DNA of 63,931 nucleotides, counting the filler, from Phoronis australis (Eukaryota; Animalia; Phoronida): NCBI GenBank assembly GCA_002633005.1. It is 5 parts of 5 records of this genome, joined end to end, with 100 filler letters (N's around TTAATTAATTAA, not from the genome) between each part and the next. Parts side by side here need not be neighbours in the genome. Positions count along the whole stretch, not along the records: positions 1 to 25,197 come from NMRA01000248.1; 4 more parts are not named here. One strand, 5' to 3'. A program made the position numbers and the translations under genes. Below are positions 2,746 to 61,661 of the stretch, piece after piece; the first letter of the stretch is position 1; the number at the start of each line of letters is the position of its first letter. The notes under the pieces were generated by a model. It saw only the letters and a program-made list of their open reading frames with translations. It was not told where the DNA came from and did no database searches.

Positions 2746-3844
2746 ATTTCTCTCATAGAGTTTGGCCATTTAAAAAATGTTTGTTATCACGTCTCGTTAT
2801 GAAACTTGTAGCGACGAGCCAAAATTGCACTGATTGTTAAGCTGCCGGTTGCTAATTCTTGAGTAACTACTATTGTGATAGATCGTAATATGAGGATATG
2901 CACTTACGCTACTGATAATTGCGTAACATTACTATTGTGACAGATTCTAAACGGAGTGTACATGTATGTGCTGAAACCACTTTCCAGTTAAATAATCATC
3001 AGGTCTTTGGATGGATTGGAATTAAGTGCTATCATTAATGCAATGGCACTCAACCGACTCTGTTACAATACTTCTTGTAAGATGTATAACGAGTAATATT
3101 AAAAAATGGCGTGAATTTGCATGGTCTCATTGTGTTAAAAGACGACCAGATTTCCGACCCAACTGCTAACGGCATTGGCCTCCGAGGTAACGACTCCTAA
3201 CAAACCGTTTTATTTTTGGTCGGAGTCAGCTAGATGGCAGGTCGCTGAATCCTTGACGACCACGAAAAAGGTTTGTATTGCACGTGAAAAAAGCAGCAAA
3301 ACGCCAATGGTGAATCAAACATGTATCACACATAAAAAACTAGAAAGCAATAGCTGACATATGATCGACTTCTAATCAGCAATAACTTGGAAAATTTGGC
3401 CTAAGTGTCAAACGACTGAATGAACTGGCGAGTCATAGTGTGTTGTGCTGTGCCTGAAAAGACAAAATACGTAGCATGAAAACCTAGCGTATACGTAGTC
3501 TAGGAACTTTTCGCTCGCAAGGTGGCACTCTGGCTCACGTTTCAATCAAAATACGATATCCTGATTCCAAAAGTAACCAAACTAGCTAGAGCTTGAAAAT
3601 TTAGGCTCCTCCAATTGTTTCAAGCGAGGAAAAATGAATATAACATCCCCGAAATCTCTCTAAGGTGACACACCAAATACGAGCTAAGCACCTCTGAGGC
3701 CACTCGGGTAGAAAGCCAATTATACATGTTGTCATAAAAGAAAATTACGGATAAAGGAGCCGAAAACAAGCACACATCAATTAAATTTTGCGGTAGTCGT
3801 TGAGCAACGAGCAATTACCACAATCACTTCTCGAAGAAACTTAC

Positions 3845-3976
3845 GAAGTTGGTAATAAGTTATTATCTGGTGGATCTTATGTTTTTCGCGGTCCGGAATA
3901 CGCCCTGTTCAGCTATGATCTCAAACATATTGGCTTGGCTAAAGTACAGACGTATCCACTACGAGTACAACAGGTT
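3845..3976 (-). pseudogene. PTP relic exon (P-loop RSG and VFRT region)
   Basis: tttcag|A ACC TGT TGT ACT CGT AGT GGA TAC GTC TGT = TCCTRSGYVC; after a frameshift ANMFEIIAEQGVFRTAKNIRSTR**LITNF|gtaagt. Confidence 0.75.
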
Positions 3977-4450
3977 CTGAAATGGATCATTTAGTGTAGA
4001 ATTGACAGGAACAATAAATTAAAGTGCGAAGTTGCGCAAATCCCATTGCAGTGGAAAAAGTGAATTCCATTCCGATGGGAAAAATCGCCACAAATCGCGA
4101 CATGCAACACAGGGATTCAGCAGAGGGTGAAACAACTACGCCACCTGCTGTTTAATCCGTGGTAATGGCAGAAACTCCGAGGCGCTGTCGATAAACATTA
4201 GTGTAGAGTTAAACCGAGTCGCGATGGATCTGTGATAGTTTCGCAAACGGTAAAGTGACAAAAGAGATATTAGCACAATAGCGGTACTTAATTTGTCTTC
4301 CCCCAGTCAAACACCTGATGGGTTTAAAGCACGTACTAATCATACTACTTAACCAGTTGGCCAGGCTGAAGGGTAAAGTCAATCAAGTGCTGCCATTTCT
4401 ACATTCAACACGAGTTGTTTGTGAACATAAAACTTGCTATATTTACTTAC

Positions 4451-4604
4451 AAACGTTGCATTACAGCTGCGTTCTTCCCAGTTGGTTACTGCGCCAGTTC
4501 CACAATTCGATAAGGGCACTTTGTAACTTCGATTGTGGCATATCAAGTTTGTTTGACCAGTTCCTGACTTGGAAGTGTTCGATTTCCCGACACTTGCTGT
4601 TCGG
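4451..4604 (-). pseudogene. PTP relic exon (WPD-loop region to VHC-equivalent)
   Basis: PNSKCREIEHFQVRNWSNKLDMPQS..LIEL / AVTNWEE / AVMQRL across frameshifts; acceptor appears mutated (ttttccaa); donor gtaagt, phase 2. Confidence 0.72.
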
Positions 4605-4859
4605 TTGGAAAAACAACTCAAAATGTGACTCCCGTTTTACTGTTCAGTAAGAAAGCCTATGCATACTGAATCACCACAAACACGAGATCTGGTGTCTATG
4701 GTGATCTAGTGGTCAAAGTACATCAACAGTGCGTAATGTTTATGAACAGTGTCGTTGACACAAAAAAGCAGAAATGCTGAACCATACGACAAACGTCTTA
4801 AATCTACTGAGCTGCAGATTGATCACGAAGAAACAATGTAACAAAACTAATACACTTAC

Positions 4860-4991
4860 CCTCATCGTGTCAGTCAAAAGATCTCGCTGCTTGATAACGT
4901 CGCCATGGTGATACCTTGACCCAACACATTGCACTTCATAGCGTACACAGTGCACAGGTCCTTCATCAGGCCGATATTGAGAGCAATAAAA
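4860..4991 (-). pseudogene. PTP relic exon (QYWP motif mutated to QYRP)
   Basis: cacag|FYCSQYRPDEGPVHCVRYEVQCVGSRYHHGDVIKQRDLLTDTMR|gtaagt. Confidence 0.72.
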
Positions 4992-7668
4992 CTGTGAGTT
5001 ACCAGTAATAATATATCATACTGTCCAGAGGCTCGGAGTTTATTAAGAGTGAGATGACGTATATAGTAAGTAAGGCTATGGAGAACTAAACTATGGAAAT
5101 TGACTTTGTGAAAGCAAATATTTTCTGACAGTGGAAAGCATGTAATCTGCCGATAGGAGTAGGCGTTTGTACGCTATTCTTCGCCCATGTGCTTTATATT
5201 GTTTTGATTTATCTGACGTTAAAAAGTCATGGGACGCGAAAGCTCGTCAAGATTATCTTTTAAACAGTTCCTGACGAAAGTATCATCTCGCAACGTCTAT
5301 TAGAGAGTAATTCGAATTGCCCTGTGAGGAACTTTTCAGAGAAAACCCACAAAATTCCCATTTTTAGAAATACCCATGGAAGAAAAGGTCCCACTTAAAA
5401 TAAAGGCGCACATGCGTTCACTTTCATTTGCATGAAATCGCTGTAGGTCCAAGGTCACATTTTCCACAATAAGGAGAGGTACTTTACCTTGTGGGAGATA
5501 AATTGATGAAGTGGCGAGTAGTTGACAGATCGTTTGTTTTCAAACTTAAAACTAAGAGAAAATGCTTTGATGTCAACAAAAATTACAGCTCTTTACGAAC
5601 AAACCCCCAAAATACCCGGTGAGGAGGTTGATTTCTGTTTCAGTGACAGAGAACAACATTCAATATTGCAATTTCGTCTGTTTATCGTGTTCCAGGCCTC
5701 TTTGAAGTTTGTGCTCTCGATTCTCTGCAAAATACGCCGTAAGCAGATTTTGTTATTACTAACACGTGTCTAGTATATCGAAATATTGTCCACTAGATTA
5801 GGGTGTCGGTTATTTAATTTGTCTAGTATGTCGTAACATGGTTCCCTAGATTAGATTGTAGGTCGTTGCCCTACTTTCTGAAAAGTTGTTTAAAATCCCC
5901 TCTATTGTTTTGGGATCGTCCTCGTCGGTTTTCGTCTGTTTTGTTGCTCTCGTACTGCCTTGAGGTGTAGTTGTATCACGTCAAAGAACCGAAGTTTTTT
6001 GAATGTCGCGCGGTCGTGAATTTTCCGATACTTACTTGTAGATTTCAGGTCAGTTGTGCATGTAGTAGGCTTTTCCGCTTTTGTAGCTTTTACTATGCAA
6101 AATTCACTTTAGTAGGCACATTTGGTGTTGTAACTTTATTTCCTGGCAAATCTTGCAGAATTTTATTTTTCATTGAGTAAATATGTCATGAATAGGAACA
6201 CGTGACCATGAGTTGTTATGAAAATTTAGTATAAAAGAAATATTCGATCAAAACTCAATTGATATAAATGATCAAATTAAAACCTCACAAACGTTTTGTG
6301 ACAGATTTTCAAAATATCAGCTCTTTTCATTGATGCAACTTTAAGATTTCTTCATAAAACCACTAAAAAGTACTGTTTTTATGGCACCTCGTGCAAATGT
6401 GAATCGTTTTAAAAGGAATTTCTAGAATGGTGTTAGTGCATCAAACAAAGTACGTGGACATTTCATATGTTTCCGATCAGCCATGTCCGAGACTTCTTTT
6501 TTGAACGAAGACAAATTTGAACATTTTTCTTGTTTCCTGCATGTACATAATCTAATACTTGAATTCACACGAGGGGCGCTGTACTGAGGAGTGGCCAAAA
6601 AGTGTGTTATCAGTAGCAGACTACACAGATTAAGTAATTAGTTTCTGTTTTTCCAAGAAGATGCATTTGCAATTTTTGAACTTGCAGGAGAACTACTCGA
6701 AAACGGAATCAAAAAACGAATCTGTACAGATAACCAGACAGCAATTAAAGCTTTAAAAACAATCTTGTGAAATAACGTATTGTTGAACAATGTATTACCA
6801 ACCAAAATACATTAAGTGAATATAACGATATCGCTATTGCCTTGACATGCCACCTGTCGGTTTTGCCTTTTGTTTCTCAGGAATAAGGGTTGGTCATTAA
6901 AAACGATCCCAATCAGAGACAACAATAAAAGTTACGGATATCCGTTTGTTACGTCATTGGACAACACTAAAGTGACAATAGCGAGCGGTAAGTGCCGTGC
7001 GCTAGAAACGCCAAAAATTGAAAAATTCACAGTTGATATCCCGCTGACTGCAAAAAAACTACGGCTGATACTCCAAAATTTTCAGGTTCTGCATGCTTCC
7101 AACGGAAAATTAGAAAATTTCGGAGTCTCAATTGTCAGTTTTTAGTAATCGACGGGCAGTTAACGATGAAATTTCAGTTGGGCTCCACGAGTCTCACAGA
7201 ATAGCCGTGGATTCAATTTTAAGAGATAGAGTGACATCTACGGCAATAACGGAACGTAACAGAGGCGTATATAAAGATCCAGAATTAATACATTTAGTTG
7301 TATTTCAGAGAATTAAAAACCAACAGCAAGCTTAACCATGAACGTAATCAACTCAAGATTGCACAGAATAAATACAATCTGTACCATGTCAGATTTCAAC
7401 TCTACATACTTGCATGAAGGACAAAGTAAATAATAAAAATAAAGATATATAGCCAAATTAACATCAAAAATGCAATAAATCTTGCTGTATCAAATTGAAG
7501 AAATTAAACGTTACACATTTGTTCGGCTCACCAAACGATTCTCTATGGGAAGTTATGCTGTAGAAACAGTTCTACAGCAATAACAATTGAAACTGCTCGG
7601 TCCTATTTTGGCCCTGACCTTTTTGACGCGAGAATGGCTTAGCAGGTTTAAGGTTTAGCTTCACTCAC

Positions 7669-7719
7669 GTTCACGAAGACTGCATTGATATAGCCACCTC
7701 TTCCTTAAACGATGGTGGT
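7669..7719 (-). pseudogene. PTP relic exon with YINAVFVN motif
   Basis: tctttag|AC CAC CAT CGT TTA ... GGC TAT ATC AAT GCA GTC TTC GTG AAC|gtgagt; matches the PTP DYINA motif of D2 type (YINAVFVD); internal frameshift/deletion. Confidence 0.75.
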
Positions 7720-8229
7720 CTAAAGAATATCATTGAGTGTTTGTAGAATCCCCGATCACGCCGTTTGTTGATGAGGAGACCCTTGTCAATATCAGAACAT
7801 TCAGATGTATCCAAATCAAGGTGTAAATGTACAGTTTACAAACGCTATCACGTTTCGTTACCAAGGAACCATTTCAAGTTGGTGATGCCCTAGAATGTCC
7901 TCTTGACTTTCCGTAATTTGGCACATTTCGAGAACAAGGAAAGTGGCTGTTGAATTACATTGTAGCACAAGCGAAATACAAATCATCATGTACATTGTGC
8001 TCAGCTCTCTGGTGATGTCTCTACTACTAAAAGATCTGCGTCACATTGGGTGTAAAATTGCGCACAAAAGAAAGGTTTTCTTTTTTGGCCAAAATGTCGC
8101 CGCTAAAGATGATATCAGTACCAACAACTTAATCCAAAGTTCGAAAATTGGAGTTGATGATTTACCTCCACAACACTCAGAACCAGCAGTAATGTGAATT
8201 TAGTCGACCCGTGATTGTAATCTTCTATA

Positions 8230-8383
8230 CCGTGGCGGAATAAGAGGGGGACAAGGGGGCCATGCCCCCCTAAAATTCTCCTAAATTACATTTTGCTGTT
8301 CGGGGGTGCGAACGTCTGACAGGAAAAGTCCTGGCTGATGCTCTGCCCTGGCTACCCTAACTCACAATCCTGAATCCACCCCT
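8230..8383. mobile_element. G/C-tract MITE, deleted copy
   Basis: Reverse-complement similarity to both ends of 39593-39855. Confidence 0.65.
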
Positions 8384-9683
8384 TCTACATTCTGTCAACT
8401 GATTGAGACGCCTTAGTTTTTGGTCACGGAATGAGAAGGAGAGAAAAGTCATCAAAAACAATGTATGGAACTTTTGATATACTGGCAACTCTGAGACGAC
8501 CAGGTGTGTAAACAGGTGGGTACTCAAGACACGGCTCAAGTTTTAAGATGTGGTGAAGTAAACATAACTGTACACTGTCAGTTTTCAGGTACTTAGGAGC
8601 AACCATTGATTTTCCCTCTCACTAAAATATCAAATCCGTTTCACGCGTGACGCAACGCATTGCAACTTGTCATATACAAGCCAAATGAAATTTCGTGGTA
8701 TTCACCATGTTCTTAGTGGTGAGTAAAAGAACATTTTATCAAAACCATAAAAGCCTGTGTTTTCCATACTAAATAGAAACAAATTATCTATAATGAGGCA
8801 TATGATAAAAAAGAAACAAATGAAACGGTTGCATCTAAAACGTGTTTTTCACACTTAGTCACCGTTTGCCAGTGATACAGCACACACGATGCAAGTTAAG
8901 AAAACATTAACACTGATTACCAATGACATCAGAGAGTGGCGCATCTGAACGGAGAGTATGACTAAGGCTCTTTGTGAATTGCCAGGGCAGCTGAATTCAA
9001 TAGTTGTCTCACCGCGGGGAAAATCTCACCAAAACCGTATGCTTTCAATAAAATATCCTGCTTTACGTCGCACAATTTCGAGAGAGCACTCGTGTTATTG
9101 AACTCGACCCTGGTGTTGGTACATTGTATACTGTCTACTATCGAACAAAATAATAGGCAAAGTGACACTGTAAGGTGATAAAACAACGGTGGATTTAAAA
9201 CGGGTTGACATGTTTCTGTGTTTATCAAAACACCATCACCATAAGCAAAAACAGTGGCCACCTATGTACCATTTCTTGTTGTTGGGCATAGCACTTGGTC
9301 ACTGTTTTCACTTCTGAAGATGATGTTTTAACAAACGCCAAATCATGCCAGGGCTTTTTGAATCCATCGTTGTTTTACTCAATATATACTGCTACTTGCT
9401 ATTATGGAGATAAACTGTACATGTAAGTGATTTCAATTACAGGTGACGGAATTCGTATAGGCTTAAATTGCCCTACGTGGTTAAGTCTCATTTTATGAAA
9501 AGAACTTAGAATGCATAAAAAATACTTAAGAAAAAAACAAACAATTATAAAGCATTTATAATTCACCAAAACACATGTAAATTGTCTAATTTCTCAACAT
9601 TAGCTGCGAGTACCCAATAAATAGATGTTCCGAGTTCAAGGCTCTGACGAGGCAATAAGCAATATTACATTGTGTTATCAAGT

Positions 9684-9855
9684 TCAGCAGTCGTCTTTCC
9701 CTGTATCGATGTTTTCGTACATGAAATCGTCACCACCCTTCACAGAGATAAACGTCTTCCTCAGAGTCAACATATCTTCCAACATGGGCACGAGGACATT
9801 AAATGATGGTCGTTTGTGAGGCTCCTCTCTCCAGCACATTGTCATCAACTCGTAT
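9684..9855 (-). CDS. RTK terminal exon: kinase subdomain XI and C-tail
   Basis: [56 protein letters not shown]. Confidence 0.94.
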
Positions 9856-12800
9856 CTGAAGAAAGGAATTTTAAGCAAATTTTACATACACAGTAAACTT
9901 CAACGAAACTGTATTTGTTCGCCACCGCTTTTCACCAGATATAGAAAACCCCTTGTAGGATCTTAGTCGTTCAAAGTCATTGAAAAAATCAAACAATGTT
10001 TCGGAGGCGGAAATGGGTTAGATTGAGTCGCAGAATTCCCGAATTCCAAAAATAGCACGAATTTTTTCACTACTCAATTTCGAAGGAGCGACTGAGTGGC
10101 AGTTTTGAATTAGAGCTGACATGCTGCAAGCGTAGGTTGGGCCAACCCAACAAGGAAACGTGATGCAACGAAGCTGAAGTACGGTAATTAGTTAGCGCGC
10201 AGTTTGAACGCCTATAATTATAATCAAATGGAATAGAAAAGCGGTCACAGATGCCCGATGTAATAACCACTAGAAATCACCTGTAGGCATATAGTGACAC
10301 GATAACACGACATATAAAGGTATCCACCAAACACTATCGAATTTGTCAAATCAAGTCACACATTTGCCATTATTTCTTGGACATTGCTCATATTAGTTCG
10401 CATATTCATACACTCGCGTCTGACAATTTACGATCTTTGTTCACGGAGTACCATCGAAATGTACAAAAATGCAAACCACGTTGTGCAAACTATCTAATTA
10501 GAAAACATCTTTGTTACGTTATGTTTGCTTGGAAAATGGCAACTTCGGATATTTCTGTACAGCAAGCAAAAATGACCGGATACTTAGATATTATCAACAC
10601 AATTTCTCAGTAGCAGCAAACATTTTGCACATTTGTTTGCATTTTGTAAAATCAGTGATAATCACGGAAAATACCCCCAAGTTCAAGAATGGGGGAATAC
10701 ATACATGTAGTTGACGAAGAATTCAAAGAAAAAAGCCATTCGTAAATGTGTTTAGTGTACAATTTGTCTTTTGTCGAGAAGATGCTTTGATTCCAAATAT
10801 GAATGCTTTTATAAATTGTATTATATTATGCAGCATAGAACTACGGCTCCTAATTAGTAAATGGTTTTTGGAAAAACAGCATTTCGGTCACCGGCGGAGA
10901 TGCACATGTTCAGTACTCACCCATCTCGAATTTAATTTTACAAGAAGCAAGTGTAAAATGTACGAATGTACATAGTTACATCTTTAACATTGCAATTTCA
11001 TCGTGCTTTGGAGTATTTCAAAATTTGGTAATACTAGATGCCTGGTTTGTGTCATTGCTAGACTGTCCTTTTTCTGTGGGGCGGAAATAAGGTGAATGAT
11101 GGTCTGCAATTTATATGTAAAAATGTCGTATCTCGAGAAAACACGTAGAGAGAAGAGACACGAGATGCTCTCATTGTATACTGGCTTTAAACAGTTTCAG
11201 TATGAAATACCCAACGTGTACTTACACGTCCTCACTGCAGTTACAAGGCTGTGGCATCCTGTAGCCAGACTGGAGCATAGTTTGCAGGTGACTGCTGGAT
11301 ACCCCACTGTAGGGCGTCCCTCCTGAAAGACGCACGTGCAAGATTTGATTGATGCAACAAGTTACGCTACGGATCGTTTTATGATTCCTCTTACGCATGC
11401 CCAGGAAATTGAATTACTAGATAGTACCAGTTCTTGCAACATAGCCGTCTGTTTCCCACAGTACTTCTGTTTCACTCAATCCAGTATTCTTTGTAAGAAC
11501 AATAAGAGAACAAGCAAAATGCTGCTTTATAAAGCCTGATTACAGTTTTGAACTCGATCCTAGACATGAACATTTACTGTACAGGGCATTAAGCCTATTC
11601 ATCACGTAGAAGAGAGGGGAGTATTTAAATCTTTTTCAGCTAACCACTGAAGTTTTTGCCCATATTTGACTACATGTAACTAGATTATTTAATGTTTCAA
11701 AATACGGAAGATGTTGAAAACTTACCCAGTGTCACAATCTCCCACATCAGAATTCCAAAAGACCACCTGGAAATTCACCCGACAAAATAAAAGCAATCAA
11801 TTATTTCGAATTTTCCAACGGTAAACAAATGGGAATCCTAAGTAGCGGGAAGTTACTCATTGTTTTTAATTCCTTATCGGTGGCACATGACAAGAAATCA
11901 GCCTAACAAATTATGAAACGGGGTTCTCCAAATATCGAAAATATAACGAGCCCGATTAATACCACATCACACCAGAAACAACAAAAGTAACAAGGTCGCA
12001 CAAAGTTAGCCTATGCTTCCAAAATATCGTTCACATGAATCGAACTCTTCATTTTGATAATGAGCACCTGTTGGTGTCAGTGCTTTGTTAAACCAGTGTT
12101 CACCTGAGTCTACGTATCTGCGTGTTCTGGTCGTGCTTTACGTCACGAAAAAATACAGCCTGAAACACAAAATGAGCAAAAAGCTCCAAAATCAAACTAT
12201 CACCAACAAGGTTAATAATGAAGGATGGGAGCAGGTAGACTTTGAAAAAAATCTTTCAGGAACAACCTCTTCGATTATCGCAGGGTATTTGGTGAGTTGG
12301 CCTCGTGGAAAAGACAAAACAACCAATTTCCGAGCACCAACTCCAGTGTCGTTTAGCAATCGGTGAGATGGTCTTGTCGCTTCCACCTCGCAAATCTGTA
12401 ACAATCCATTTCCGAGCACCAACTCTGCTGTGAGTTCGTCTGGGTAAAGGCAAACAGCTGTTGGTGATATCACTGCATGCATTCTGAACACGCTAAATGC
12501 CCCTGGAGAATTTGGTCCTATTTGAATAGGTAAGCACCTATTTGGTCATATTTGAATACGTAAGCACCTATTTGGTCATATTTGAATACGTAAGCACCTA
12601 TTTGGTCATTTTTGAATAGGTAAGCACCTATTTGGTCATATTTGAATAGGTAAGAGCCTATTGCCTCTGGTGCAAAGTAATGGGAACAAGACCCTGGCAT
12701 AGATTTTACGGTATCAAATGCACTATTATCGTAGAAAACACAGATCAGTTCAACAGTCATAGCGAAGTAGAAACAACATACACGTCACTTTTAGTAGAAT

Positions 12801-41893: not shown

Positions 41894-42163
41894 TTCCTGC
41901 CTTCTTAGAAGAACGCAGCACGGATATTTTGTATACTCATCATGGTGTGATTTTTTATTATATATTGTCCGAGGAAGGATTTGAAGTCACGATTTCTGAA
42001 ACTACTACAGATATTTTGAGCCCAGCACCTTAACCACTACACTACGGAGTCATCAACTGTACTTAAACCTTCCTAAGTAGACTGAGCTAGGTGTCACTTG
42101 GCTGTTTGCTCGGCTGGCTGAAGAATTGCCTTGTACTTTCATGTACATGGCTTCCTTGATCTT

Positions 42164-42826
42164 CGACTTCAACTCCAACCACACCACAGGAGTCAAGAAG
42201 GGTATAATCAAATGCCTTGCATCAAGATCAAAGGAAATCTGCAGTGCTACAGCACTGCAAGCAGAAATGACCAACTTCAAGGAGACATTCGAAAAAAATG
42301 GCTACCCAAAGGATTTCATCAAGTCGTCTTTAACATAGCAGAGAAAAGAGAGAGTGGCAGAAGAACGCCCACTGCAGACTATGTGCTTGCCATATATACC
42401 TGGAACAATCGAGAAGCTCGGAAGAACATGTAAAGAATTTATAATAAGAACAGTATACCCTGGCTCAGACACACTGGGTCGGCGACTGACAGAAGTCAAA
42501 CCAAGAACTGACATGGGAAAAAAGAAAAATGTCATCTATGAAATCCCATGTGGATGTGGTGAATCATATGTCGGCGAAACATTAAGACCACTGGAGATGA
42601 GAATTGCCGAACATAAAAGGTGTTGTATAGAGGGTAATACCTCATCAGGAGTAGCAGAACACATGCGGACGAAAAACACAACACCCAGTGGAATAACATC
42701 CGAATACTTGACAGTGAAACAGGTTGGACCAAGAGAAAGATCAAGGAAGCCATGTACACGAAAGTACAAGGCAATGTCTTCAGTCAGCCAATTGACACTT
42801 GGCTCAGTCTACTTAGGAAGGTTTAA
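42164..42826 (+). pseudogene. Penelope-like ORF remnant (GIY-YIG endonuclease)
   Basis: VIY-x-IPC-x-C-xx-YVGET..R...R..EH motif; in-frame stop near 42338 and frameshift near 42675. Confidence 0.88.
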
Positions 42827-42858
42827 GTATAGTTAAATTCCCTCTGAGTAAATGGATA

Positions 42859-52490: not shown

Positions 52491-54459
52491 TGTGATTTTG
52501 CCTTAGGAAGTTGGTAGTCTTGCTATTAAAGCACCTCGAATACTAATTAGCAGTTAGAATCCAATGTGCATGAAGTTATATTTTGAACTGAGTTTCAAAG
52601 TTTTTATGCTGTATATTGTTTGTCTGCTGAGAAGTCAAGGAAAAACATGAGCTACAATACAATACTTGTCGTGTACTTATGGACTTTATACTGAAAGCAG
52701 CCGTTATCATCTTCACTTCTTCCACATGACCTCTGCAGTGGATATTGCTTGCAACATGAGGCATTTATATAGTCAAGTAACAGCTGATCACCTGGAGCAG
52801 GATACATGTACGTTTGCCCTCTGGAGGACTGGGAAGTAACATGAATTCACTCTTTAGACTTCTCACAACTAGTCACACACTCTTATTCAAGTACGTTCCT
52901 CTGTGTCTTCCACTGCTCGGGTGAAATATCTTCTCACTGGTAGCTGGTCCCATTTTGTCAGCCCCGATTGCTACTCGAAAGTCTCCCATTTTTCACTTGT
53001 GTCAAGCACAGCAAAATGCGCACAGATAACAAAATGATCACATTAGCCAGCCATACCACTTCAAAAGTGAAGTTATTGTGACATTGGCGGCTATATAACG
53101 TCCACGGAATGACTCTGACCAGTGGTTTTGCATTTGCCTGTAATTGCCAATGAATCTTTCACCTTGACACTGTCCTCCGCTTTCAACGCCCTGCATCAAA
53201 ACCACTTGAAGATTCCTAAAGAAATGTTTGTTCAGACACACTCCACAGCTAACCCACAGTAAGCATCTTTGTAAACTGCACATTCACAGATAAAACCATA
53301 AATAAATGACCTTGTTCATACAACACTGTAAGATTTGGAACGTCGCAAGTGGGGAGAGGGCAACACGATTTTTGAAGGAAAATTTTATGAAAATGATTTG
53401 TCGGTGTTTTTTTTTTTTGTTTTTAGCAGTGCAAATAAGATTACTGAGCTTTGTAAAACCAGTGAGATTTGAATTTCGACTCTCGCAAAAGGTGTCCTGC
53501 CAAAGTTACTGCTATTTGCGTAGTAAGTATCCTAATTCCATGACTACGAGCACTTTTTAGAAATAAAGTAGTGTACCCTCGGTGCCTAGAAAATACAAAA
53601 TTTGATGAATGATAAATTGATTCGCCGTTTGCTGGCCAACTATTAACAAATGTTCACTTTTTGTTGACGTTAGTCGGCACTACTCATTGTGGTGAAATGG
53701 CGTAACCACCAGCCATTTTTTACTTCAAATGACATGAAATCCGTGCGCCAGGAATTTTTTTGTCTTATTTTGTAGATCTAAAATAGCTCAACACACTGGT
53801 TGGTACTAAAATGTTCTGAAACCTGTGCCAGCTGAGATATCGGGATACGAGTTAAGCCAATTTTGACAGTTTCAAAAATCACTAAAAACACTCATCTTAT
53901 GCGGCTCTAAAATCAGACAAAAATTATCGAAATCTTTAAAATAGTCGAAGGTCACACCTGATCAATAACACAGGTTCAATATTTCAACGTTACTTCCACT
54001 GCAGAACGTAACTGTCGGAATTTTACTAAAACTTAACTGCCGCCAGGCTGAAAACTTGTCGGAAACAAATAGTATCAATGGAAACCAAAAGGGGGCGTTT
54101 TGAAAAAAATAAAGGTGGTCAGGAGTCATTTGGGCCAGAGTCATCTCACAGACAAAATATAAAGAGAATCTGTGACACAGCGTTTATCACCCTCTGCCTG
54201 GTCCATTCGCGAACATGCTCTTAAGGCTTCTAGGTTCTTCTCTTAAGAATTAGTGCCAATTTTAGATTAACCTTTCGGAACCTGCTCCAGTCTTTTGCTT
54301 GCACCTGTCTTGTTCAATGCAGTTGTTGTTTGCTGTCGCTCAACATCTCCCATGTCGAAGGTACATCCCGATGACTGAATCGGCCATTGGCAGGTTCATA
54401 CACATTTTAATTAATTCTCCCGTGCCTTGATTTTGATTTTGATCTTAGCGACACGCAGC

Positions 54460-56075
54460 GTAATCAAAAGATAAATCATTATGGTATTACTGGAGTTGAA
54501 TATGCACTGTTTAAAAGTTATCTCTCAAACCGCACCCAATATGTTTCACTAAGTGATACAACTTCCAGTTGGTTACCAATATCTACCGGAGTTCCCTAAG
54601 GCTCTGTCCTTGGCCCACTTCTCTTCCTAGTTTACATAAATGATCTTTCGTTTTCTTCTCCCATGGATACACTTCTTTATGCTGTCGACACTTGCCTCGT
54701 CACACCTTACAAACTGACTGAATCTTCCCAACGCACTTTACAGCAATCGACCACCATCAGCAACAACCTTAAATCTATTTCAGACTGGTTTTCCGTGAAC
54801 AAACTTTCAATTAACACATCAAAAAGTAAATTAATGATCTTCCACTACCCCGAAAAGTAAATTGAAGAATGTATTATTCCCACCATTTATATAAATAGCA
54901 AAACAATATGTCATGTGAACAGTTTTCCTTACCTTGGTATTACTGTTGACAAAAACCTCTCATGGTCCCCCCACATGAACCTCATCTCAAACAAACTTAA
55001 CAATCTCGGTGGACTTTCATACAAATTGAAATCTTATCTTCCTCTTCCAGCTCTCAAGTTGTTATATAATTCACTTGTCCTTCCACATTTAACCTATGAC
55101 ACTGCAACTTTTGGTTTCTGGCAACACTAAGAAACTTCAGACAGCCCAGAAAAGACTCCTTGGGAATATATCAAATTCCAGTTATAACGCTCACTCTCTA
55201 CCCATATGTAAGGAACTTCGCCTCCCTCTAATTCAAGACATCTTTAAAATCTCAACTGCAAAATTTTATTACAAATTCCTCAATAATCAGCTTCCTAAGT
55301 ATTTTTACACTAACAACTTCGTTACTAAACCCATCCAATATAAACCAACCAGACACATTAAAACTCCTACATACCTGAATCAATACTCAGATGCTATACC
55401 GACAATTCAACCCAAAATTTTAATTCCTCCGTCCAACAAATTGTCATCAAGAGCCTGTATTAGATTTCAGATTACTCGACTTATCAACAACAACGAAATA
55501 CCAGTCTCTGCTCTAAATATAATAAAAACGCATTCTTTGCAAGCATNACCAACCAGACACATTAAAACTCCTACATACCTGAATCAATACTCAGATGCTA
55601 TACCGACAATTCAACCCAAAATTTTAATTCCTCCGTCCAACAAATTGTCATCAAGAGCCTGTATTAGATTTCAGATTACTCGACTTATCAACAACAACGA
55701 AATACCAGTCTCTGCTCTAAATATAATAAAAACGCATTCTTTGCAAGCATTCTCCAGGTTCTTAACAAATTTTATTATTAGCAACTACGATCCAGTTTCT
55801 CATGTTTCCAACTGCTCCATATGTAACGGTATCTAATTGTATTCTCAAAATCTCCTGAGCTGTGCCAGTTTACTTCTTGGTTCCTGGCGTGTCGGTCGTT
55901 TTCAGCACTAATTCACTGTTTTCTTAAGTATTCCTACTGAGTTTTCCATTTCCATTTGTACAGGGAACCTTCTTATTAACGGTCAATAACCTTTAGAAGG
56001 CCTAATCAATGTATTATTATGATGTAATGTAAATAAAAGCGTTCTCTCTCTCTCTCTGTCTCTCTCTCTCACACA
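54460..56075 (+). mobile_element. 5'-truncated, decayed CR1/L2-group LINE (RT remnant + 3' tail)
   Basis: HYGITG..LFKSYLSNRTQYV..STGVP*GSVLGPLLFLVYINDL..LYAVDT..WFSVNKLSINTSKSK..YLGITVDKNLSW..LYNSLVLPHLTY; stops and frameshifts; ends with AATAAA + (CT)n. Confidence 0.9.
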
Positions 56076-60540: not shown

Positions 60541-60624
60541 AAAATAGCACTGCTATTCAACAAAAAAGTTAACAGAAGTCGCTTACTCGCGAGTAAGTAG
60601 CCGAGGTGAACGGCCGCGACGACA

Positions 60625-61661
60625 ATGCCGGAACGTACCGGGATTTTGATATTGATTTTACTTTTTTGCTGTGTGGCAGCATCTAAGGTGAACGCAACAT
60701 CTCAACAATGTGACTTAACCTTAGATAGTGGCCCGGGGAGTGATTTCCTACAATGCGTTAATGGAAAATGGAACGTAAACGTTACGAATGCAACTTTGAA
60801 ATACAACCACGGAGTACTGCAAATTGGACACCACCACTGGATGCAAGACTGGGGCAGATTGTTTAGAAAAAACAACACGTGGCACGTGCGCGTAGGCTGC
60901 GAGGAGCACACGTGGAATGAGTTCTTCAGGCGTCACAAATTTAACGCCACTACTGAACGGTTCGAGAAGGGAAACTACTCCATCGAAGAAACTTGGTTGC
61001 CATGCGTGAACAACTCGCTGGAGAGAATAAAACCGGATGGCTGCATTGACGATCGCGAGCTTGACAAGATGAAGAATGCAAGCCACTTTAAGTTGAATTG
61101 TGATGCCAATAGTACACGGTGGACGCTGATGGGCCAACGACTGTCTGACATTGTGGAAAAGTGGAGACGACTTGACCGTGACGTGGACGTGTTTGAGAAA
61201 ATACGGACAACACCCGAATATCACGGCAGATGCAACGCGTCATCTTTTGCGGGGAGAGAAGCAGCGAATGCCTTGGAAAAAGTGAAAGATTTCATGATGT
61301 CTTTGGAGAGTAAGAGACGCGATTTAACATGCCGGGACTGGGGAAATAATGACAACAATAATGAAGACAACTGTCTTGACTTCGACAAATTGGCACGAGA
61401 AGTTAATAGAAGCAGAGCTTCTGGTGTACCCTTAAGTCTTTGTTATTGTAAAACATTTTCGAAAATCCTTCACGAAAGGAACATGACTAACCATACACGC
61501 GTAGCAAACGAAAGTTGTGAGGCTTATACAAATCGAACGGCTCAAATAGTCTTGAAATTCGATACAGAGATGAGACAGAAATTCTCCTGTTCCGGACCGA
61601 AGTGTGTCGACTTACGCAACCTACGTAGACGCATTGATGAAGGAATGCAAGTTAACGACAG
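60625..61661 (+). CDS. Hypothetical secreted or membrane Cys-rich glycoprotein (3'-partial, runs into gap)
   Basis: Uninterrupted ORF of about 345 codons in AT-rich DNA; acaATG context; signal-peptide-like MPERTGILILILLFCCVAAS; 15 N-x-S/T sequons; 14 Cys after the leader. Confidence 0.8.

Follow-up and report, generated by a model that had tools for sequence, protein, structure and literature searches.

A decayed D2 phosphatase domain downstream of a Tie-like receptor kinase gene in the phoronid Phoronis australis

In most human protein tyrosine phosphatases of the receptor type (RPTPs) an active first phosphatase domain (D1) is combined with an inactive second one (D2), and the C-X5-R and WPD motifs are defined in the same work (10.1101/805119). 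The R3 RPTPs include sea-urchin copies with an altered WPD motif, and the accessible part of the article on that group describes no D2 placed behind a kinase (PMC5336234). In a literature search covering mostly open-access texts, without supplements, no article turned up in which a D2 remnant follows a receptor kinase of the kind treated here. The subject of this report is a broken D2 of the phoronid Phoronis australis, located on the minus strand downstream of a Tie-like receptor tyrosine kinase gene. It lies in a window of 63,931 nt, which is the whole stretch of DNA analyzed, filler included, joined from five parts of assembly GCA_002633005.1 (positions 1 to 25,197 come from NMRA01000248.1). 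The window has a base composition of ~39% GC and reads as animal DNA with introns.

Compared with the D2 of RPTPs (the membrane-distal pseudophosphatase, PF00102), the remnant keeps the motif order YINA, QY[W]P, R..FQ..W, [H]C.DG..RSG and VF..K..R and likewise has no WPD; it differs in being broken, in having no D1 or receptor part attached and in resembling database proteins too little for single exons to give a Pfam match. The D2 exons of vertebrate R2B RPTPs break after YINAxFxx and inside HCL/xG, and so does the remnant. Introns and splice sites are kept, the lesions are of mixed kinds, an element sits in an intron and expressed relatives exist, as in other unprocessed (duplicated) pseudogene fragments, whereas the 5' truncation and the overlap of the first exon by the 3' untranslated region (UTR) of a neighbor set this locus apart. 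The neighboring gene shares with the Tie-like kinases of echinoderms (Patiria, Acanthaster) the FN3 plus Fn3_PTPRU build, a kinase 47-51% identical and a DDx end, in a comparison at the protein level; downstream of the phoronid gene there is in addition a decayed D2. The remnant is an ordinary 5'-truncated unprocessed pseudogene fragment. It probably represents the 3' part of an RPTP gene duplicate whose front was lost and whose remainder decayed where it stood, behind the receptor-kinase gene.

Identity and decay of the D2 exons

Four exons match the second domain of RPTPs beyond chance, a match to D2 as a class. A single mollusc-heavy set of 58 tandem-domain RPTPs (out of 61 proteins given) served for both the D1 and the D2 profile, and positions 3300-9700 of the minus strand were taken as the target for a purpose-written aligner that tolerates introns and frameshifts. 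The spliced score was 47.7 with the D2 profile vs 19.8 with that for D1. D2 scores averaged 19.2 in 60 control stretches (maximum 23.1), reached at most 23.2 in 60 hexamer shuffles and ranged from 17.3 to 20.9 in the plus, reversed and complemented forms of the target. Profiles built from 21 non-mollusc proteins gave 36.3 for D2 (null maximum 29.9, n = 18) and 19.8 for D1; with the exons read as X-joined sequence, D2 and D1 scored 48.7 vs 15.1 bits and 45.3 vs 9.5 bits, and the top 21 of 116 single-domain alignments were all to D2. The closest single matches were bivalve "kappa-like" RPTPs (P0202, P0184), in a set seeded with a mollusc D2. The confirmed and possible exons, and the element inserted among them, are located as follows.

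~7844-7669, minus strand: D2 exon A, 176 nt, ending ..GGYINAVFVN; donor GTGAGT; net frameshift near 7697; stop at 7838-7836
5960-6088, minus strand: D2 exon B (SYKSGKAY..) as a possible remnant, seen by eye, unconfirmed, 185 of 200 nulls scoring as high
~5124-5731, no strand assigned: multi-copy element between exons A and C; contig depth ~4900-5700 vs 19-66 in the flanking bins, the edges being those of depth bins
4991-4860, minus strand: D2 exon C, 132 nt, open frame; CAG acceptor; GTAAGT donor; W>R in QY[W]P
4604-4451, minus strand: D2 exon D, 32.4 bits; GTAAGT donor; acceptor changed from AG to AA (4606-4605)
3976-3845, minus strand: D2 exon E (..CTRSG..VFRTAKNIR..), 20.2 bits; GTAAGT donor; two stops at 3865-3860
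3690-3760, minus strand: possible last D2 exon F (FFYDNMYNWL), unconfirmed, 48 of 200 nulls scoring as high; no AG acceptor found

Exons A, C, D and E are collinear, follow the order of the D2 profile and carry protein tyrosine phosphatase (PTP) motifs within one domain. When each was compared with 200 nulls, in regions chosen after inspection, the exon score was reached by none for A, D and E and by a single null for C. All four donors are canonical and three of the four acceptors are AG; three of the four confirmed exons (A, D and E) are broken, each with a frameshift. Exon D has a 10-nt deletion near 4508 and a TAA at 4488-4486, both defined against spliced reads, and reads Q-R (CAA CGT, 4458-4453) where D2 has H-C. 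The frameshift of exon E sits at a 5-nt tandem repeat (3939-3930). Exon C has neither stop nor frameshift, its W>R codon being CGG at 4973-4971. The WPD position of the remnant is occupied by W-S-N, and the C-X5-R loop is not intact, with R at the Cys position; this loss is the decay itself.

The initial annotation, made from the sequence alone, had described an RPTP D2 pseudogene with at least four exons keeping gtaagt or gtgagt donors, with frameshifts, stops and one broken acceptor, and with W>R and C>R changes at the QYWP and catalytic-position residues, and each of these points was recovered here, the D2 signal being found by frameshift-aware profile alignment. Its proposed extent of 3640..7946 stands for exons A, C, D and E and is weaker at both ends: the last exon near 3640-3760 is unconfirmed, and for the uncertain 5' edge of exon A position 7844 is preferred, with 7946 possible. 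A contig joint at 5928-6079 was set aside as support for exon B, as only 21 letters lie on one side. A PDB sequence search with the PTP pieces gave nothing relevant, the ESM Atlas gave no usable match, and the sole tblastn match with 14 single RPTPs was of 27 residues on exon D (E 1.7).

Reads over the locus and its intact relatives

RNA in the orientation of the kinase gene extends to ~7420 and crosses the donor of exon A without a joint (depth 1.6-5.5).

7420-9683, minus strand: region taken from stranded RNA depth as the likely kinase 3' UTR, end approximate

A scan for polyadenylation signals found no AATAAA near the end of this region. The UTR likely covers only exon A of the remnant, unspliced. 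The initial annotation had suggested looking for residual splicing within the kinase 3' UTR; of the four exons, that region takes in exon A alone, and no splicing was seen there at depth 2-5. No window-type reads were present on exon D in runs X5 or X6, the cover of 3604-5123 in run X7 is thin (0.26-1.26), and joints between the PTP exons of the locus are listed in neither read mapping.

Reads of the same species show spliced, locally intact relatives. At 4488 all 17 X5 and 12 X6 reads carry a sense codon and continue into a spliced exon E; their loose ends hold 10 more bases at 4508 and then splice into an exon E reading HCLDGCTRSG (hand translation), and X6 loose ends at 4884 give the relative's spliced C-D junction, at the inferred exon edge. 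In the codons compared the spliced RNA reads are ~83% alike to the window. A hand count over 31 codons (~17% difference), a small sample that favors alignable stretches and has no outgroup, gave 16 differences, 8 synonymous and 8 non-synonymous; an old duplicate under selection for part of its history is suggested. In the DNA run X1 the relative's letters occur in contigs at depth 69-101 vs 17.5-27 for window-identical contigs, and this several-fold depth of intact-type letters points to extra copies or paralogues. Paralogues are the most likely source of the spliced reads with intact motifs. Three X1 contigs leave exon A at 7693 and continue with related D2 sequence; when reads were mapped at 80% over 5740-8240, exons A and B received no spliced reads from the relatives. 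Second X1 contigs at 6247-7040 show a divergence of 7-10% from the window (27 of 264 and 20 of 294 letters), as a very divergent haplotype or a duplicate would.

Both that 7-10% difference and the X7 reads that depart from the window on exon C could be taken to mean that the locus is a polymorphic pseudogene, the intact spliced reads being its other allele and the assembled haplotype a null one. This is decidedly unlikely: the difference in the 31 codons is high for alleles, the intact-type letters reach several times the depth of window-type contigs in one DNA run, the window-like reads over exon A are unspliced and hold no frame-restoring indel, and the window has no D1 signal. That the disruptions are assembly errors in an intact gene is largely refuted and hardly credible. 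Contigs of X1 match 3300-4913, 4901-5297 and 5270-6179 without a single other letter or gap, and at 4488 the stop base is retained in all three X7 reads, which were produced in another study, so that assembly error is unlikely even though the assembly and X1 may not be independent; moreover, no indel row appears among the X5 and X6 reads that cover exon A at depth up to 5.5, and the lesions are numerous and of several kinds.

Origin of the remnant behind the kinase gene

Within the window the remnant does not stand behind a D1 in a receptor gene. No D1 signal was obtained over 60 stretches of the window (best score 26.9, mean 18.9), and for a D1 end plus linker in 7850-9680 the score was reached by 14 of 150 nulls, and the stretch from the kinase stop to exon A yielded no linker. 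Among candidates that were rejected, 7946-7860 showed no sign of an exon for the D1 end or the linker, the highest D1 score beyond the target (26.9) falls on a "DYINA" stretch at 52774 (52680-52829, minus strand) and is likely due to chance, and a D1 path of 41.4 bits running over 44 kb and across kinase exons was judged to be chance, with no null at that length.

A DNA-level duplication in a multi-copy RPTP family would have yielded the gene, and a deletion or rearrangement with its junction between 7845 and 9684 would have removed promoter, ectodomain, transmembrane segment (TM) and D1; the kinase 3' UTR would afterwards have come to overlap exon A. Loss of the front of a duplicated RPTP by deletion is the simplest account, and the remnant would yield no protein. 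The unprocessed nature proposed initially, with decay in place and introns kept, is supported by the profiles, the introns with their splice sites and the reads, and is refined to a fragment without D1. The value of such a fragment is mainly for annotation and as a mark of gene birth and death in the RPTP family, and an old exon would make up part of the long 3' UTR of the neighboring kinase.

Several points weigh against this origin. Exons B and F, expected in a D2, are unconfirmed, and Pfam gave no PTP match on single exons or pieces nor on a read-through of exon C, intron and exon D, the PF00102 cut-off not being passed. The intact copies are known from reads and contigs only, and contig depth is not copy number. 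On exon C the X7 reads show the letters of the relative along with 3 additional bases, and allele and paralogue are not fully separable there. X1 is a DNA run that may be the assembled sample itself, RNA depth is low, and ~19% of each RNA run was read.

The gene upstream bears on two further explanations and is modelled as follows.

23399-9684, minus strand: gene of a Tie-like receptor tyrosine kinase, modelled in 12 exons, with FN3, Fn3_PTPRU, TM and kinase
21376-21106, minus strand: Fn3_PTPRU exon, an RPTP-type juxtamembrane domain (Pfam PF23144, E 1.9e-07)
~19909-19804, minus strand: TM of the kinase, from the gene model

Ten of the 11 junctions are in frame, whereas that from Fn3_PTPRU to the TM calls for either a short exon that is not seen or an acceptor lying upstream; between the juxtamembrane exon and the stop an open frame is kept, with GT-AG at every junction. 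The 5' end of the gene was not found in this model. The last three kinase exons are spliced in RNA (joints 9852-11223, with 19, 17 and 3 reads, and 11323-11728, with 6 and 8 reads), and the closest kinases are mostly echinoderm-named. The PF23144 domain is common to sea-star Tie-like kinases and to RPTPs of molluscs, corals and bryozoans.

A replacement of the D1 of an RPTP gene by kinase exons, with ectodomain, TM and D2 stump all derived from one RPTP gene, is an unsupported and rather doubtful alternative. The strand and order are those of ectodomain-TM-[D1]-D2, the juxtamembrane exon matches Fn3_PTPRU and scores 52.6 bits with a coral RPTP vs at most 33.9 with sea-star kinases, and in a 51-row tree (rows below 8 bits left out) it joined coral RPTPs at 98/98, on a long branch. 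Kinases with the FN3 plus PF23144 build are, however, frequent in sea stars, placing the window's domain with 7 sea-star kinases is not rejected by an approximately unbiased (AU) test (p = 0.588; the tree so constrained was 3.18 log-likelihood units better), and the coral grouping is absent from a second tree of 33 rows; once the AU test was in, the first ectodomain tree was no longer relied on. The juxtamembrane comparison took in RPTPs of other species only, and a word-based search with the Fn3_PTPRU exon scored none of 73 candidates. If true, such a swap would have made a writer out of an eraser receptor while its ectodomain stayed the same, caught in the act with D2 as a fossil tail; it would show the origin of receptor kinases with RPTP-type ectodomains and give direct evidence that signaling modules are exchanged between receptor kinases and phosphatases under a shared ectodomain. 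Adjacency and shared strand are all that speaks for the reading that kinase and D2 were once fused in one receptor and that a new stop then removed the D2 tail, which is highly improbable. The kinase ends in DDC-stop where relatives end in DDx, and its C-terminus aligns to their last residues (1798/1799, 713/714, 338/339), so it stops where its family stops; since, in addition, none of 120 kinases carries PF00102 among the matches listed (120 of 1065), a broken fusion protein is unlikely, and RNA holds no kinase-to-D2 joint.

Other features of the window

Over the last kinase exons (9684-11766, minus strand) most RNA reads differ from the window at many sites (20 of 26 at 9789 in X5), and a close expressed kinase paralogue behind these divergent reads is suggested. 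A 30-bp tandem repeat occupies 12510-12662 in a kinase intron, and the kinase 3' UTR holds an inverted repeat with 82-nt arms (9179-9377) and a short multi-copy repeat (8228-8312).

On the plus strand, 60610-61661 is an intron-free open reading frame of ~350 aa with a signal-peptide-like start and many Cys and N-glycosylation sites, interrupted by an N gap; it gave no Pfam or Atlas match. An apparent assembly duplication surrounds the N at 55547. Positions 54600-55836 (plus strand) hold what is judged, from its motifs, to be a broken LINE-like reverse-transcriptase tail, and 42053-42836, judged in the same way, is presumably a Penelope-like retroelement remnant.

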